Counted from the stretch's first letter, positions 3,136 through 30,690 are shown. The stretch is DNA of 49,222 nucleotides from Escherichia coli (GCF_003334255.1 NZ_QOWU01000039.1); one strand, 5' to 3'. The notes: a model not told the origin generated them from the letters alone. Numbers and translations: made by a program.

Positions 3136-4074
3136 TCAGTTAAAAGGTTGTAAGTCGACGCGCGCCATCATTGCGGCCAACTGCGGACGATCGGTAATAC
3201 CCACATTGCTTTGACTTACCGCCAGGGCTGCAACAGCTGTCGCCAGACGCAGTGTGTGTTCACTGGATTCACGCATCAGCAAGCCATAAATCAGGCCACC
3301 AACCATAGAATCCCCTGCGCCAACGGTGCTTACGACATCGACTGACGGTGGTTTGGCGATCCATTCGCCGGAGGCATTAACCCAAAGCGCGCCTTCGGCA
3401 CCCAGTGAAATAACAACATGCGCGATGCCTTGTTCACGTAGCGCATGTGCAGCTTCAATCACATCTTTCATTTCAGGCAGTTTACGGCCTGCCCAGATTT
3501 CCAGCTCGCGGCGGTTAGGTTTCACCAGCCACGGTGCCGCTTTCAAACCTGCTACTAACGCTTCACGGCTACTATCAAAGATAATGCAAGGACACTGACT
3601 ACGCAGGCGAGTCATCCAGTCGGTGAACGCTTCCGGGCTGACGCCTGACGGTAAGCTTCCGCTGACACAGACCATATCGAACTGACCGAGCCAGCTCAGA
3701 GAATCAGTCACAAAGCGTTCCCAGTCGGCGGGGGTGACTTCAAAACCCGAGAAGTTGAAGTCGGTCACTTCGCCGTCTTTTTCCGTCAGCTTAACGTTAA
3801 TTCGGGTGCGCCCCTGTACAACCTGGAAACGGTTGGCAATGCCCAGCTCGCTGAACAGTTGCTGAAAACCATCCTGATTGTCTTTACCCAGGAAGCCGCC
3901 AACGGTGACATCAATTCCCAGGTCTTTTAATACTTTGGCCACGTTGATGCCTTTACCCGCCGCATGCAGACCGGTGGTTTTCACCAGGTTCACTTCGCCG
4001 CGTTCAATTTCCGGGCAGAAACCAACAAGGTCATAAGCCGGATTAAGGGTGATAGTAGCAACACGTCTGCTCAT
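3136..4074 (-). CDS. fruK: 1-phosphofructokinase (PfkB family)
   Basis: 312-aa ORF; start [15 protein letters not shown]; operon position between fruB and fruA. Confidence 0.95.
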   Translation of the reverse strand: MSRRVATITLNPAYDLVGFCPEIERGEVNLVKTTGLHAAGKGINVAKVLKDLGIDVTVGGFLGKDNQDGFQQLFSELGIANRFQVVQGRTRINVKLTEKDGEVTDFNFSGFEVTPADWERFVTDSLSWLGQFDMVCVSGSLPSGVSPEAFTDWMTRLRSQCPCIIFDSSREALVAGLKAAPWLVKPNRRELEIWAGRKLPEMKDVIEAAHALREQGIAHVVISLGAEGALWVNASGEWIAKPPSVDVVSTVGAGDSMVGGLIYGLLMRESSEHTLRLATAVAALAVSQSNVGITDRPQLAAMMARVDLQPFN

Positions 4075-5204
4075 TATGCGCCCTCCCCAAGACCAGCAGC
4101 GATAGCGTCGCCGATTGCTTTCAGCGCCTGTTCAGCATCTGCACCCTGGGCGGTAAAGCGTAGGCGATGACCTTTCTTAACGCCAAGTGCCACAACTTTC
4201 ATCAGACTACGTCCGTTTGCCGGTTTGCCGGTACCATCAAGGTTTGTCACGGTAATATCACTGTTAAATTGTTTAATGGTATTGACCAGCATGGTACCTG
4301 GACGAGCATGCAGGCCGTGTTCATTGCGCACCACAAACTCCGCGCTTAACACGTCGTCGGTCGGCGCATCATCGCTGGTCAGCAGCGCCAGCAACGTTGC
4401 CGCATCCGCTTTCAGCAAGCGGTCAGCTTTATTGTCGAGCAATAAATCAGCGAGACGCTTAAGAACCGCGATGGGCTGATCGTCATTCATCGCCACACTC
4501 ACCAGCATGGCTGCCGTTTCGCCGTCCACATCAAAAGCATTTGCCGCACGGCTTACCGCAATCGCGCTACGCAGATTGCCTTCGGCGCTATCGCTCAGCC
4601 AGATACCCTGTCCGAGATTCAGCGGTTGTTCATTGATGGCTTTGGTGACGAAAGTGGCGTCAACTGCCCCCGCCTCTTTCAGACGCGCAGCGTTCAGCGC
4701 CTGAAGAGTCAGCAGATCGCTGGCGACGATATCCAGTGTCAGCATTTCGTTGTCGAGCTTCAGCTGCTCACTCTGCTTTTCGCCCATCAGTAATGCGCGA
4801 AGTTCTTCTGCTGTTGTTGCTGACTTCAGTTGTTCAGCAACGGAATCATCGCTCAGTACGTGGGTCAGCTGGCGTAGCAGGCCCAGATGTTCATCCGAGC
4901 TGGCAGCAATACCGATTGCCACGTACGCTACCTGACCGTCACCCCAGGTGACGCCTTCCGGGAACTGAAATACCTGAACGCCGGTTTTCAGCACCTGATC
5001 GCGGGTGTCGGTAGTGCCGTGTGGAATAGCAATACCATTGCCGAGGAACGTTGAGGTTTGCTGTTCGCGCGCCAGCATGCCATTGACGTAGCCTTCTGCT
5101 ACATTACCGGCCTGCACCAGCGCCGCAGCGACCTGGCGAATCGCCTCTTCTTTGTCTCCGGCCTTTTCGCCCGGATGGATGTCCTGTACGGATAACTGGA
5201 ACAT
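4074..5204 (-). CDS. fruB: Fructose PTS diphosphoryl transfer protein (EIIA-Fru/FPr fusion)
   Basis: 376-aa ORF; HPr-like C-terminal domain; overlaps fruK start by 1 nt. Confidence 0.95.
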
Positions 5205-5218
5205 AGTTCTCCTCTCTT

Positions 5219-5239
5219 GCTGAATTGAAACGATTCAGC
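5219..5239. promoter_or_regulatory. Cra(FruR)-type operator-like palindrome GCTGAAT-TGAAACG-ATTCAGC in the fruB leader
   Basis: Perfect 7-bp inverted arms read directly; contains TGAAACGATTCA resembling the Cra box; 15-35 bp upstream of the fruB ATG. Confidence 0.5.
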
Positions 5240-5290
5240 CTCTATGAGAAAAAAAGCGCCAACCTGGCTTAGGGTTAAAGACAAGATCGC

Positions 5291-5306
5291 GCTGAAACGT
5301 TTCAAG
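5291..5306. promoter_or_regulatory. Cra(FruR) operator GCTGAAACGTTTCAAG in the fruBKA promoter
   Basis: Contains the perfect palindrome TGAAACGTTTCA; matches the known Cra consensus as I recall it. Confidence 0.65.
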
Positions 5307-5399
5307 AAAGCATAATACTTCTGTTTCAGCACGCAAGGAAAGCCGTAAAGTTATGAGCAAAAGTTTGATGTGCTGCACAATTTTTTGCCATTTTTCCTA

Positions 5400-5430
5400 A
5401 TTGCTGATGGGAAAATCCGTTATCAGCAAT
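5400..5430. promoter_or_regulatory. Perfect 9-bp inverted repeat ATTGCTGAT-N13-ATCAGCAAT in the fruB/setB divergent region; candidate operator
   Basis: Read directly from sequence. Confidence 0.35.
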
Positions 5431-5571
5431 TTCATTTCAGCAGCGTCAGCAGCCAATCAGCAACAGTGAAATGGCATTTTGACTATTCGTGGCGCTTTTG
5501 ATTTCGCTGTCTGTTTATTTTCTGACAAGCAGCGTAAACTCCGCGTCTTCCTCTTCCAGTGATCGACCAGC

Positions 5572-6753
5572 ATGCATAACTCCCCCGCAGTCTCCAGCGC
5601 GAAATCGTTTGACCTGACCTCGACGGCGTTTTTAATCGTTGCCTTTCTCACCGGTATTGCGGGCGCTCTGCAAACCCCGACACTCAGTATTTTTCTTACC
5701 GATGAAGTACATGCCCGTCCGGCGATGGTGGGATTCTTCTTTACCGGCAGCGCTGTCATTGGGATTCTGGTAAGTCAGTTTCTCGCCGGGCGCTCTGATA
5801 AGCGCGGCGATCGCAAATCGCTGATTGTCTTTTGCTGCCTGTTAGGCGTGCTGGCCTGCACCCTTTTTGCCTGGAATCGCAACTACTTTGTTTTGCTATT
5901 CGTTGGCGTCTTTCTTAGCAGCTTTGGCTCGACCGCTAACCCGCAAATGTTTGCCCTTGCCCGTGAACATGCCGACAAAACCGGACGTGAGGCGGTGATG
6001 TTCAGCTCTTTTTTACGCGCTCAGGTTTCACTGGCATGGGTCATTGGCCCACCGCTGGCTTATGCCTTAGCGATGGGTTTCAGCTTTACGGTAATGTATC
6101 TGAGCGCAGCGGTAGCGTTTATTGTTTGCGGTGTGATGGTGTGGCTGTTTTTACCGTCGATGCAAAAAGAGCTTCCGCTGGCGACCGGCACGATCGAAGC
6201 GCCGCGCCGTAACCGTCGCGATACGCTGCTGCTGTTTGTCATTTGTACATTGATGTGGGGCTCGAACAGCCTGTACATCATCAACATGCCGCTATTTATT
6301 ATCAACGAACTGCATCTTCCCGAGAAACTGGCCGGTGTGATGATGGGGACCGCCGCCGGGCTGGAAATCCCGACGATGTTGATTGCCGGATATTTCGCCA
6401 AACGTCTGGGTAAGCGTTTCTTAATGCGCGTTGCTGCCGTGGGTGGCGTCTGTTTTTACGCAGGAATGCTGATGGCGCATTCACCTGTCATTCTGTTGGG
6501 CTTGCAGCTGCTAAATGCTATTTTTATTGGCATTCTGGGCGGCATCGGGATGCTCTATTTTCAGGATCTGATGCCCGGTCAGGCGGGTTCAGCCACCACG
6601 CTCTATACCAACACTTCGCGCGTGGGCTGGATCATCGCAGGATCAGTGGCGGGCATCGTCGCCGAGATCTGGAATTATCACGCTGTGTTCTGGTTTGCGA
6701 TGGTGATGATTATCGCCACTCTGTTTTGCTTACTGCGGATTAAAGATGTTTAA
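5572..6753 (+). CDS. setB: MFS sugar efflux transporter SetB
   Basis: 393-aa ORF with multiple hydrophobic segments; synteny. Confidence 0.9.
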
Positions 6754-26084: not shown

Positions 26085-27845
26085 ATGGTAACTCATCGTC
26101 AGCGCTACCGTGAAAAAGTCTCCCAGATGGTCAGTTGGGGGCACTGGTTTGCACTGTTCAATATTCTGCTTTCGCTCGTCATTGGCAGCCGTTACCTGTT
26201 TATCGCCGACTGGCCGACAACGCTTGCTGGTCGCATTTATTCCTACGTAAGCATTATCGGCCATTTCAGCTTCCTGGTGTTCGCCACCTACTTGCTGATC
26301 CTCTTCCCGCTGACCTTTATCGTCGGCTCCCAGAGGCTGATGAGGTTTTTGTCCGTCATTCTGGCAACGGCGGGAATGACGCTATTACTGATCGATAGCG
26401 AAGTCTTTACTCGTTTCCATCTCCATCTTAATCCCATCGTCTGGCAACTGGTTATCAACCCAGACGAAAATGAGATGGCGCGCGACTGGCAGCTGATGTT
26501 CATCAGCGTGCCGGTTATTTTATTGCTTGAACTGGTGTTTGCGACGTGGAGCTGGCAAAAGCTGCGCAGCCTGACGCGTCGTCGACGCTTCGCGCGCCCG
26601 CTGGCCGCATTCTTATTTATCGCCTTTATCGCCTCGCATGTGGTGTATATCTGGGCCGATGCCAACTTCTATCGCCCGATCACCATGCAGCGCGCTAACC
26701 TGCCGCTTTCGTACCCGATGACGGCGCGACGTTTTCTTGAGAAGCATGGTCTGCTTGATGCGCAGGAGTATCAACGCCGTCTTATTGAGCAAGGTAATCC
26801 AGACGCCGTTTCCGTTCAGTATCCGTTAAGCGAACTGCGCTATCGCGATATGGGCACCGGGCAGAATGTGCTGTTGATTACTGTCGATGGCCTGAACTAC
26901 TCACGCTTCGAGAAGCAGATGCCTGCGCTGGCAGGTTTTGCTGAGCAAAATATTTCGTTCACGCGCCATATGAGCTCCGGCAACACTACAGACAACGGCA
27001 TCTTTGGCCTGTTCTATGGCATCTCGCCGAGCTATATGGACGGCATTCTGTCGACCCGTACGCCTGCGGCATTAATTACTGCGCTTAATCAGCAAGGCTA
27101 TCAGCTGGGGTTATTCTCATCAGATGGCTTTACCAGCCCGCTGTATCGCCAGGCATTGTTGTCAGATTTCTCGATGCCGAGCGTACGCACCCAATCCGAC
27201 GAGCAGACCGCCACGCAGTGGATCAACTGGCTGGGACGCTACGCACAAGAAGATAACCGCTGGTTCTCGTGGGTTTCTTTCAATGGTACTAACATTGACG
27301 ACAGCAATCAGCAGGCATTTGCACGGAAATATAGCCGGGCGGCAGGCAATGTCGATGACCAGATCAACCGCGTGCTCAATGCACTGCGTGATTCTGGCAA
27401 ACTGGACAATACGGTGGTGATTATCACTGCCGGTCGGGGTATTCCACTGAGCGAAGAGGAAGAAACCTTTGACTGGTCCCACGGTCATCTGCAGGTGCCA
27501 TTAGTGATTCACTGGCCAGGCACGCCGGCGCAGCGTATTAATGCTCTGACTGATCATACCGATCTGATGACGACGCTGATGCAACGCCTGCTACATGTCA
27601 GCATACCTGCCAGCGAATATTCGCAAGGTCAGGATTTGTTCAACCCTCAACGCCGTCATTACTGGGTTACCGCAGCGGATAACGATACGCTGGCAATTAC
27701 CACCCCGAAAAAGACGCTGGTACTGAACAATAACGGTAAATACCGCACTTACAACTTACGTGGTGAAAGAGTGAAAGATGAAAAACCACAGTTAAGTTTG
27801 TTATTGCAAGTGCTGACAGACGAGAAGCGTTTTATCGCTAACTGA
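26085..27845 (+). CDS. yejM: Inner-membrane protein YejM (PbgA/LapC): N-terminal TM domain plus periplasmic sulfatase-like domain
   Basis: 586-aa ORF; N-terminal hydrophobic helices; synteny upstream of proL. Confidence 0.9.
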   Translation: MVTHRQRYREKVSQMVSWGHWFALFNILLSLVIGSRYLFIADWPTTLAGRIYSYVSIIGHFSFLVFATYLLILFPLTFIVGSQRLMRFLSVILATAGMTLLLIDSEVFTRFHLHLNPIVWQLVINPDENEMARDWQLMFISVPVILLLELVFATWSWQKLRSLTRRRRFARPLAAFLFIAFIASHVVYIWADANFYRPITMQRANLPLSYPMTARRFLEKHGLLDAQEYQRRLIEQGNPDAVSVQYPLSELRYRDMGTGQNVLLITVDGLNYSRFEKQMPALAGFAEQNISFTRHMSSGNTTDNGIFGLFYGISPSYMDGILSTRTPAALITALNQQGYQLGLFSSDGFTSPLYRQALLSDFSMPSVRTQSDEQTATQWINWLGRYAQEDNRWFSWVSFNGTNIDDSNQQAFARKYSRAAGNVDDQINRVLNALRDSGKLDNTVVIITAGRGIPLSEEEETFDWSHGHLQVPLVIHWPGTPAQRINALTDHTDLMTTLMQRLLHVSIPASEYSQGQDLFNPQRRHYWVTAADNDTLAITTPKKTLVLNNNGKYRTYNLRGERVKDEKPQLSLLLQVLTDEKRFIAN

Positions 27846-27877
27846 TTAATTATAAATCAGTTAGCGAAATATCTTAC

Positions 27878-28098: not shown

Positions 28099-30690
28099 TC
28101 AGAACGTCCAGACCACACCCGCCTGAGTATTCCACGGCGATTCTACCCCTGCGCCATTGCCATAGCTGACTGACAAATGACCGCTTAACGTCGGGGTAAA
28201 CGATGACCTTATACCAGCCTGATAAACGCCACTGGTTCCAGCCACATCATTATTAAATTTGCCATCGTCATTAACTTTCACCTGGTTAGAATCGGCGTAT
28301 TCCTGACGCACGGCCGCTTTCAGCCAGGGTTCCAGCGTCGTACCGTTTTGCAGGTCCATGTGATAGCTTACCGCCGTTCCCGCTTCAGCGCGTAATATCC
28401 GGGTATTTCCCACATCCGCGCGCATGCCGTTTGATAACGTGTAGTCCTGACCATCTGTGGTAAAGCCGGTAAAGGCCAGATAGGGTCTAACACTCCACAA
28501 TCCGTCAACCCAACGGAACCCGCTCTCAACATGAGCACCCGCGCCGTTACTATTGTAATCGCCAAACGCTGTTGCCCCATTACTCATCTTGCCATGGATG
28601 GTGTTGGCAAAACGGTCAACTTTCACCACCCCATCAACATAGGCACCGTTCTGATGCTCCCAACCGGCATAAGCCCCCAGGGTATAGCTATCGATATTAC
28701 CTTTGCCGCCGCGATCAAAACCAATATCAGAATGAGAGTAACCAAAGATCAAGCCGCAAATTGTACTGCTTTCTTCACGGGAGAAACGGCTATCGATACC
28801 GAGCGTCAGGCCCGTCAATGTTTGCTCAAAACCAGCTCCCGCATCAGTGGTCACGTTGTTGCGGGTGTTAATTGCCGAACTCCACATCGCCGTATCGTAA
28901 CTAACGCCTTTTACGCTACCAAGACGCTCACGCACGGTGTCCAGTTCTGCATCAAATACCAGCGGTTGTGCGGCCGCCATATTCAGCACATCAGTGGTTG
29001 AAGGGGTAATTTGCGCGCGATTCTCTGCCAGACTCCAGCTATGGTTGCCATTATCCAGCAAGGTATATTCATACGTACCGATATCAACAACGCCTCCGGC
29101 ATTGCCCAACGTAAATGCAGCATCACCGCCGCCCGTTGTTACCAGTGTAAGGCTATCTCCTGCTGCCGGGCTGGCACCGGTGTCCGTCACGAATATTTTG
29201 AAATCACCTGTTGCCTGACCGGTGACGTTGAGCTGATCGCTCTGATGATTAGCCATATCGGTACGCATATAAAAATTGCCGTTTCCCGACAGGGTATTGG
29301 TGGTCAACGTAATGAAATTTTCCGCACTTGCCGTCACTGATGAACGAGTCACTGGCTCATCCATCATAATCACATTTGCGTCAGACATCGCAAGGTTGGC
29401 TAAGTTGAGGAGGGTGTTTTGGTTCGTCGTAGTGATATCGGCAATGATGGTCCATACGCTATTTTCGAGCGAAACGTCCGCTTTGCTGGTATCCACGGCA
29501 CCATGCGTTCTAAAAGAAGCGCCCTCAGAAACCACTACCTTACCCACCAACATTGCGGGTGCATAATTTATTTGCGGCTTCATGACCTCAAGAATGCCAT
29601 CATTCCCTCTGACTGAAACGTTAACCATTGTGCCAGCCCAGACGTTAGCGCGGCCATTGTTGATAACCATATTTTCAGAGATGGCTTTTGAGGAATACGT
29701 GATACTTCCATTCTGATATGATCGACCGAGATCATATACCGCATTTGCCTGCACTTTCGTACCAGTATCCTTTCCCAGCGATTGCATAGTGGCATGCTTA
29801 TCAAGGATAGTATCAATGGCCTGCGTGTCCTCCATAACAATGAGCCCGGAACCATCATCCAGTTCATAATTTTTTGACACACCATCTTTTATACTAAATT
29901 GGCCTTTACTGTTTGGACCACTCACTTCCAGCGCATTCGTTGAGACAATTAATTTTCCGCCTGCTTTTTTATCAACGCCAGTTACAGTCCCGCCATCCAT
30001 AACCTCCAGTAAGCCGCCACTATCTACAGTGGTATTATAAGCGAAGTCATTTTCTTCAACTCGCAAACTTCCGCCGTTTTCCAACAACATATTATTAGCA
30101 ATACCATTCTTGATATCGAACTGACCGAGACGGTTTGTTCCGAATACCTCCATGGCCCGCGTGGTTGTTTTAATAGCACCGCCTGCTTTCTGATCTACCG
30201 CAAATGCAAATCCCCCCTCTTTAACCTCCAGTAGTCCTCCCTTTTCGATAGCGACAAAGACGGCCCCCCCATCTTTTTCAACGATTAAGCGCCCGCCTTT
30301 AATCGTGGTATCATTCGCTGCGCCATAAACCTGTAGCACACCATTATTGAGCGTAGTCTGGTTTGCCGCGCCACCCATTTGAACAATTTGATAACCGTCA
30401 TTTAATACTGAGTATTCTGCGGCGCCATTCATTTCAATGTACTGATACCCTCCGTTAATTTCAGTATTATTACTTACACCAAATTCTTTTATATGCTGTT
30501 CTCCGCCAGGATTGATTTTCGTATTATTGGCGGTCCCATAAACCAGCTGGATATCTTTTTCCAGGACAACACCATCAACTGTCTCACCATACTCAACAGT
30601 TGATGCCAATGCTATGGGTGAATATAACGCTGTAGCCACCAGAACAGATATTGCGGAACGACAAAGAGAAACAGAACCAGATTGATGCAT
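28099..30690 (-). CDS. yejO: Autotransporter (type Va) adhesin-like outer-membrane protein; intact 863-aa ORF
   Basis: N-terminal signal peptide; repetitive Gly/Asn-rich beta-helix passenger; C-terminal beta-barrel ending ...GVVWTF; lower GC than neighbours. Confidence 0.85.
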   Translation of the reverse strand: MHQSGSVSLCRSAISVLVATALYSPIALASTVEYGETVDGVVLEKDIQLVYGTANNTKINPGGEQHIKEFGVSNNTEINGGYQYIEMNGAAEYSVLNDGYQIVQMGGAANQTTLNNGVLQVYGAANDTTIKGGRLIVEKDGGAVFVAIEKGGLLEVKEGGFAFAVDQKAGGAIKTTTRAMEVFGTNRLGQFDIKNGIANNMLLENGGSLRVEENDFAYNTTVDSGGLLEVMDGGTVTGVDKKAGGKLIVSTNALEVSGPNSKGQFSIKDGVSKNYELDDGSGLIVMEDTQAIDTILDKHATMQSLGKDTGTKVQANAVYDLGRSYQNGSITYSSKAISENMVINNGRANVWAGTMVNVSVRGNDGILEVMKPQINYAPAMLVGKVVVSEGASFRTHGAVDTSKADVSLENSVWTIIADITTTNQNTLLNLANLAMSDANVIMMDEPVTRSSVTASAENFITLTTNTLSGNGNFYMRTDMANHQSDQLNVTGQATGDFKIFVTDTGASPAAGDSLTLVTTGGGDAAFTLGNAGGVVDIGTYEYTLLDNGNHSWSLAENRAQITPSTTDVLNMAAAQPLVFDAELDTVRERLGSVKGVSYDTAMWSSAINTRNNVTTDAGAGFEQTLTGLTLGIDSRFSREESSTICGLIFGYSHSDIGFDRGGKGNIDSYTLGAYAGWEHQNGAYVDGVVKVDRFANTIHGKMSNGATAFGDYNSNGAGAHVESGFRWVDGLWSVRPYLAFTGFTTDGQDYTLSNGMRADVGNTRILRAEAGTAVSYHMDLQNGTTLEPWLKAAVRQEYADSNQVKVNDDGKFNNDVAGTSGVYQAGIRSSFTPTLSGHLSVSYGNGAGVESPWNTQAGVVWTF

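Follow-up and report, generated by a model that had tools for sequence, protein, structure and literature searches.

The divergently transcribed genes fruB (4074-5204, minus strand) and setB (5572-6753, plus strand) face each other across the DNA analysed here, a window of 49,222 nucleotides from Escherichia coli to which all positions below refer. Of 5426 complete E. coli genomes, 5414 match most of a 501-bp query around the intergenic region, and the genes in these matches are annotated as fruB and setB. In K-12, too, fruB and setB enclose this spacer of 367 bp (window position = NC_000913.3 position - 2258291). Cra has fruBKA, with its textbook Cra/CRP promoter, as its founding target; setB encodes a poorly understood sugar exporter. 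Orthologous loci were collected by a SetB search with one genome per species, which gave 80 loci across the Enterobacteriaceae. The divergent neighbour is fruB in 79 of these 80 SetB loci, at a distance of 330-372 bp. The features of the spacer are listed in Table 1. A small ORF which spans the inverted repeat discussed below (5370-5501, 43 aa) was considered and rejected, as the orthologues have indels (11, 12 and 20 nt) which break its frame.

Table 1. Features of the fruB-setB intergenic region. Positions are those of the window; species counts refer to the 80 orthologous loci.
Feature	Position	Strand	Basis or conservation
Extra half-site GCTGAAT, which gives O2 the look of a 21-bp palindrome	5219-5225	+	GCTGA in 69/80 species
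Cra operator O2 (fruB distal), 16-mer GCTGAATCGTTTCAAT	5224-5239	-	14/16 against GCTGAAWCGWTTCAGC
Leader hairpin of fruB, similar to an intrinsic terminator, with U7 tract; located between O1 and O2	5249-5293	-	fold of -14.2 kcal/mol
Cra operator O1 (fruB proximal), GCTGAAACGTTTCAAG	5291-5306	+	14/16 against consensus GCTGAAWCGWTTCAGC
Probable fruB -10 hexamer TATTAT, with -35 TTTCCT at 5336-5341	5312-5317	-	predicted; best minus-strand sigma-70 score in the region
CRP site, core TTTGA-N6-GCACA	5364-5379		8/10 against TGTGA-N6-TCACA, best match of the spacer
Left arm of the palindrome, AATTGCTGAT, with core TGCTGA (5402-5407, copy L)	5399-5408	+	GCTGA here in 68/80 species
Copy L, TGCTGA	5402-5407	+	68/80 species
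Right arm of the palindrome, ATCAGCAATT, with core TCAGCA (5423-5428, copy R1)	5422-5431	+	core in only 33/80 species
Copy R1, TCAGCA	5423-5428	+	33/80 species
Copy R2, TTCAGC	5436-5441	+	71/80 species
Copy R3, GTCAGC, 9-10 bp from R2	5445-5450	+	70/80 species
Copy R4, ATCAGCAA, direct repeat of R1, Escherichia-specific	5456-5463	+	core in only 7/80 species
Rigid conserved block, candidate setB core promoter and upstream sites	5466-5547	+	conservation profile
Block D	5466-5483	+	conservation profile
Block E	5487-5503	+	conservation profile
Block F	5511-5528	+	conservation profile
TAAACT, -10-like hexamer	5535-5540	+	best conserved; highest mean -10 score across species

Two Cra (FruR) operators of fruBKA had been proposed in an initial annotation of this DNA, and this assignment is right and already published. 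Both are 16-bp sites after GCTGAAWCGWTTCAGC with the TGAAWCG core and the central CG which characterize a Cra operator. The fruBproximal oligonucleotide of a recent study on Cra and FruK (JBC 2024), TTCTTGAAACGTTTCAGC, is the reverse complement of O1, and the fruBdistal oligonucleotide of the same paper, GAGGCTGAATCGTTTCAA, is the minus-strand sequence of O2. O1 and the core of O2 are present in 80 of 80 species, and every alignment column of O1 is conserved to at least 95%. O2 is located in the fruB 5' UTR, just upstream of the Shine-Dalgarno sequence. The larger palindrome at 5219-5239 (GCTGAAT-TGAAACG-ATTCAGC), first taken as the operator, is a real 7+7 inverted repeat which contains O2, but the canonical operator is only the 16-mer 5224-5239 within it, read on the minus strand, and the left arm represents an extra half-site. 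As RNA the same stretch forms a 7-bp hairpin within the predicted fold of the fruB leader. A further half-site, GTTTCAGC, is found at 5325-5330 just upstream of the fruB -10 region; only 26 of the 80 species have its core, and together with the left half of O1 it makes up an 11-nt imperfect inverted repeat.

The CRP site combines similarity to TGTGA-N6-TCACA with conservation in the spacer alignment and with a fixed position relative to the fruB promoter, the distance from O1 to CRP being 83 bp in 77 of 79 species. According to the literature a single CRP site serves both fruBKA and setB, and CRP binding as well as CRP dependence have been reported. Between the two Cra operators the fruB leader has the features of an intrinsic terminator: a hairpin (5255-5293) followed by a U7 tract (5249-5255), a conserved A7/GCGCC segment, and a strong RNA 3' end mapped by Term-seq to NC_000913.3 2263539 on the minus strand (Adams et al., supplement), which is window position 5248 and 44 nt upstream of the fruB ORF. 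When the full leader is folded, the Shine-Dalgarno region (GAGAGGAGAA) is paired to a U-rich tract (UUUUUUUCUC), and the O2 hairpin is enclosed by this pairing. The modelled structure suggests that the leader may act by attenuation or translational masking.

On the other side of the spacer, the distances within the setB-proximal block are fixed, with 20 bp from D to E, 14 bp from E to F and 24 bp from F to TAAACT. The block is likely to be the setB core promoter together with activator sites. Blocks D and E contain two TTTTGA repeats 19-20 bp apart, which are followed by CTGTTTATTTTCTGACAA. The latter consists of two CTGnnnA heptamers with a distance of 11 bp, resembling the direct repeats bound by response regulators of the PhoP/PhoB/TorR type. 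A consensus scan for promoters and terminators found no promoter, and it also missed the known fruB promoter. In the transcription start data of Kim et al. (2012) a weak plus-strand start (5 reads) at NC_000913.2 2261425, which is window position 5112, was assigned to setB with a leader of 460 nt. This start is inside fruB, antisense to the fruB 5' end, and a TACATT is found upstream of it at 5100-5105.

The most eye-catching element of the spacer is a third inverted repeat. It was originally described as a perfect 9-bp repeat at 5400-5430; it is indeed perfect, but longer by one base in each arm, and has to be written as a 10+10 bp repeat, AATTGCTGAT-N13-ATCAGCAATT, at 5399-5431. Perfect inverted repeats of at least 10 bp with a spacer of 3-20 nt occurred in 31 out of 2000 dinucleotide shuffles of the 367-bp spacer (1.6%), and the 49-kb window contains seven inverted repeat loci of such size versus 1.3 windows per shuffle. 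The window-wide count also includes two other perfect inverted repeats with long spacers, one with arms of up to 14 bp around 27835-27867 and one with the 10-bp arms CATCAACTGT-N13 at 30573-30605.

The palindrome had been proposed as a candidate operator for setB or for a divergent promoter, with the proviso that it should be conserved. Such an operator, bound by a dimeric setB regulator, could be real only in E. coli and its closest relatives. In favour of it, a perfect 10+10 repeat rarely arises by chance, the sequence is unchanged in all six E. coli strains sampled while SNPs are found just outside, and the arm centres are 23 bp apart, which is about two helical turns. However, perfection is confined to E. 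coli; 9 bp remain in Escherichia sp. MOD1 and 8 bp in E. albertii, and the repeat is broken in three further Escherichia clades, whose SetB proteins are 98-99% identical, as well as in most other genera. It is not conserved beyond E. coli and its two closest relatives, and in its specific form the proposal of a separate setB operator thus fails by the proviso that came with it. A fixed-spacing dimeric operator should preserve both arms and their distance. Here the core of the right arm is missing in the majority of species, the outer AATT bases of the left arm are not conserved, the four outer pairs are mostly unpaired, and the distance from L to R1, measured between the pentamer starts, is 8, 18, 19 or 20 bp depending on the genus, which makes the arrangement ill suited to a fixed dimer. 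In addition, about 140 bp separate the palindrome from the best conserved setB -10 hexamer downstream of it, and the two are not in register. None of the E. coli motifs known to us matched the palindrome. SgrR, the regulator of the setB paralogue setA, was tried and rejected as a candidate, because the sgrR-sgrS spacer with the sgrS promoter is devoid of GCTGA. A dimeric operator is thus improbable. The palindrome is probably no functional unit of its own but an accident of the E. coli lineage, in which two inverted copies of a short motif have flanks that are complementary by chance. The perfect palindrome which catches the eye is the least conserved part of the region.

What is conserved is the motif inside the arms. 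The pentamer GCTGA/TCAGC is found nine times in the 367-bp spacer compared to 1.5 times in shuffled sequences, and none of 5000 shuffles reached nine. Five of the nine copies are within 5403-5461, and no other part of the 49-kb window has so dense a cluster of them. The initial annotation singled out a third element next to the Cra operators; the core of its left arm proves to be well conserved, but it belongs to an array with the copies R2 and R3, which had not been described. In the array interval of about 79 bp every species has two to six pentamers (mean 3.7), while control intervals of the same spacer have 0.39. Copy number, orientation and spacing all vary between the genera: Enterobacter has TGCTGA-N3-TCAGCA, Klebsiella and Buttiauxella have TTCAGC-N4/5-GCTGAA, and in most other genera the copies are direct repeats at a distance of 9-10 bp. 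Changing copies and orientations between genera have the appearance of binding-site turnover. The conserved object, presumably also the functional one, is the whole hexamer cluster between the CRP site and the setB-proximal block, which consists of L, R1, R2 and R3, and in Escherichia also of R4. This conserved cluster beside the CRP site has apparently not been described before. In E. coli strain 1002W03 (L086) a deletion of 11 bp, equivalent to 5446-5456, between the direct repeats R3 and R4 (TCAGCA...TCAGCA) has removed one hexamer copy. This deletion illustrates how slippage between its repeats can alter the array.

The distances between the array and its neighbours are not continuous but fall into classes. 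From CRP to L they are 29, 18 or 9 bp, from CRP to R2 61, 51 or 41 bp, and from L to R2 either 32-34 or 21-22 bp, while R2 and R3 are 9 bp apart in 31 species and 10 bp apart in 29. Adjacent copies keep a distance of approximately one turn of the helix. In Escherichia a loss of 2 bp before L is offset by a gain of 2 bp after L. The distances from CRP to the array change in steps of about 10 bp, which is about one helical turn, with only about four to five independent indel events behind these steps of approximately 10-11 bp. The steps would fit selection for a constant register with CRP, but they could also result from slippage between repeats, as in the 11-bp deletion of L086. The linker from R3 to D, in contrast, is unquantised and varies from 26 to 36 bp. 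Because the distance classes are linked to O1 and CRP and the linker to D is free, the array travels with the CRP/fruB module and not with the presumed core promoter of setB. The earlier description of the repeat as lying nearer to setB is therefore misleading.

Intestinirhabdus alba (L074, 1963-2500) is without fruB, so that fruK is followed directly by a spacer of about 540 bp. This spacer retains an O1-like sequence (TGAAACGTTTCA), the CRP site, R2 and R3 (CTTCAGCAGCTTCAGC) and the setB-proximal block, while the hexamer L is gone. With fruB and L lost and O1, CRP, R2 and R3 kept, this locus decides nothing on what the array follows. A search for FruB relatives outside the family, which bears on whether the array follows fruB or setB, gave only matches of the Salmonella level.

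Instead of a DNA site, the repeat could represent a hairpin, of RNA or of a single strand, formed in a long 5' UTR of setB or by an upstream antisense transcript, where it would act as attenuator, stabiliser or processing site. As RNA the E. coli palindrome has a folding energy of -13.6 kcal/mol (z -3.8) with a U-rich stretch behind it, some GCUGA/UCAGC stem is possible in most species, and the weak plus-strand start at 5112 was assigned to setB. Single positions also agree with pairing: the locus L002 reads GTTGA, so that on the plus strand a G-U pair would be kept, and the inner pair 5408/5422 alternates between AU, CG and UA in 20 of 48 species. Over the whole alignment of these 48 species, however, 61.0% of the cells are paired versus 59.3% in shuffles, and 55 out of 500 shuffles reach the observed value. 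The four outer pairs are unpaired in most of the 48 species, and the arms extend beyond the core by 2.68 bp within species compared to 2.55 bp between species (permutation p ~0.19). Folding of all orthologues on both strands gave a mean z of -1.4 for the plus and -1.6 for the minus strand, with neither a common structure nor a strand bias. It is the core sequence that is conserved and not the pairing, and the indel steps of a helical turn point to DNA geometry. An Rfam scan at E values up to 10 gave noise only, with no match better than E=7. The consensus scan found no terminator-like site in 5100-5700, the palindrome having a loop of 13 nt and a stem rich in AU, and a 3' end for setB is missing from the Term-seq tables of Adams et al. 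A structured RNA is usually recognized by pairing that is maintained through compensatory changes, by a shared fold and by a match to a described family, none of which was found for the palindrome. As complementarity is not kept by compensatory change, the hairpin reading is not supported across species. A hairpin role restricted to the E. coli lineage is conceivable, since the sequence is invariant in the six strains and would fold well, but nothing supports it. We consider an RNA function quite improbable.

A binding site for FlhD4C2 has also to be discussed, because a genomic-SELEX study of FlhDC found a strong peak with an intensity of 82 in the fruB/setB spacer, confirmed binding by gel shift, and measured lower fruBKA and setB mRNA in an flhD mutant. 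The peak could reflect binding at or near the palindrome, since the tabulated position of the FlhDC box, 2261710, converts to window position 5397. However, the box sequence given by the authors is located at 5625-5667, inside setB (codons 19-32) and 250 bp from the tabulated position. The 42-44-bp FlhDC consensus (AAYGSSNNAAATAGCG-N10-12-CGCTATTTNNSSCRTT) has its best match in 5150-5700 with 17/28, which equals the shuffle mean of 16.7, and this motif bears no resemblance to TGCTGA. The authors' box at 5625-5667 itself does not score better than shuffled sequence. The carbon-metabolism genes newly assigned to FlhDC (ptsH, fruB, pfkA, epd, adhE, aceB) are those of the classical Cra regulon, which calls for caution. 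That FlhD4C2 recognizes the palindrome is in our opinion very improbable.

The more serious alternative concerns Cra itself. The hexamers could be weak Cra half-sites upstream of the CRP site, i.e. auxiliary pseudo-operators. Together with O1 and O2 they could allow Cra dimers, which FruK might bridge, to assemble into a looped or higher-order repression complex, comparable to the part played by lac O3 for LacI; Cra control might in this way also be passed on to setB. A Cra half-site has GCTGA(A) as its outer half, and the array is in helical register with the O1/CRP module. The 16-mer at 5426-5441, which ends in R2, is the third-best match to the Cra consensus in the region (11/16), and three 16-mers with at least 11/16 are found in the region where 0.25 are expected. 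FruK-bridged looping of Cra operators on the fruB promoter has been raised in the JBC 2024 paper, and the fruR-fruB spacer of Vibrio, which has three FruR operators, is a precedent for additional sites on the divergent side.

On the other hand, L and R1 reach only 8/16 against the Cra consensus (the 16-mer from L at 5403 has 8/16, as has another one at 5435), and no palindrome arm or other hexamer has a TGAAWCG core, the best 16-mer being the one with 11/16. The view that the repeat is not explained by Cra, expressed in the initial annotation, is consequently correct for complete operators, but it overlooks that the arms carry GCTGA, the pentamer of a Cra half-site. Positions 7-9 (W-C-G), invariant in both operators, are not conserved between species in the copies. 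For comparison we looked at nine other Cra-target regions of K-12. In eight of them (pykF, ppsA, pfkA, pck, fbp, ptsH, adhE and epd) a site with at least 11/16 is present and the TGAAWCG core is kept, while icd is without such a site. Additional hexamers are not found in these nine regions, where the density is 0.20 per 100 bp, i.e. the random level, versus 1.9 per 100 bp here. Furthermore, proteins of the LacI family bind as dimers and require two adjacent half-sites with a central CG, and Cra appeared dimeric in AFM (JBC 2024). Auxiliary Cra pseudo-operators are therefore an unlikely explanation of the array.

We favour the following reading. The motif is (T)TGCTGA(A), of which two inverted copies, L and R1, make up the E. 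coli palindrome, and the cluster would be a set of double-stranded DNA binding sites for one protein. The putative protein would read single hexamers in either orientation on a fixed helix face relative to CRP; such a fixed face would in turn imply that the protein acts jointly with the CRP/fruBKA promoter module. It may also reach setB by way of the shared CRP site. We judge the chance somewhat better than even that a protein binds this double-stranded DNA in register with CRP and modulates fruBKA, and possibly setB.

Which protein this might be is a separate question. Because the motif equals the outer half of a Cra half-site, Cra is the leading single candidate; it would have to bind in an auxiliary way that is not canonical, perhaps with FruK as a bridge, and it is rather unlikely to be the binder. 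A factor other than Cra is at least as likely. We know of no E. coli factor with a TGCTGA motif, and none of the motifs known for MlrA, NikR, LexA, FNR, sigma-54, sigma-28, PhoP/PhoB/TorR, CreB and YpdB or the LysR-type boxes, which were considered as leads only, fits the array. Taken more broadly, the hexamer cluster in CRP register across the Enterobacteriaceae could be a platform for a factor that has not yet been linked to fruBKA or setB, be it another regulator or Cra, with or without FruK, acting on half-sites in a CytR-like manner; this idea is tentative and we give it somewhat less than an even chance.

If true, a third layer of control would be added to the fructose PTS operon, and this layer would be coupled to the divergent sugar-efflux gene. 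The accepted picture of two operators plus CRP would then be incomplete. An array that binds protein would also help to find out how setB is linked to the uptake of fructose, or whether half-sites or FruK bridging can be used by Cra, a question raised in the 2024 work on Cra and FruK. As it stands, the array is a modest and testable annotation of a well-studied region and does not represent a new kind of element.

Comparison with known systems shows partial similarities. The hexamers share the GCTGA(A) of the outer half-site with the Cra operators of fruBKA and are located in the same intergenic region, but they differ in being without inner half-site and central CG, in occurring singly, in either orientation and at variable spacing, and in reaching 8-11/16 against the consensus. 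With the auxiliary operators lac O3 and gal OE-OI they have in common that weak operator-like elements are placed upstream of a CRP site and in register with the main operator; lac O3, however, is a degenerate operator of full length to which a tetramer binds, whereas here the elements are half-site-like hexamers and Cra appeared dimeric in AFM. The GTTGCA sites of PutA in the putP-putA region are a known hexamer array in a divergent control region. Several copies of a 6-bp motif are scattered through the divergent intergenic region there too, although motif and protein are others than in the fruB-setB array. CytR, a repressor of the LacI family, binds repeats of the octamer GTTGCATT, direct or inverted and flexibly spaced, beside CRP and in register with it. 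Neither fruBKA nor setB is known to be a CytR target. The motif of the array is TGCTGA (TTGCT) and not TTGCA/TGCAA, and its conservation is centred on GCTGA. With its short sites in either orientation, flexible spacing and position beside CRP and in register with it, the array nevertheless resembles the CytR operators, which are its closest behavioural analogue.
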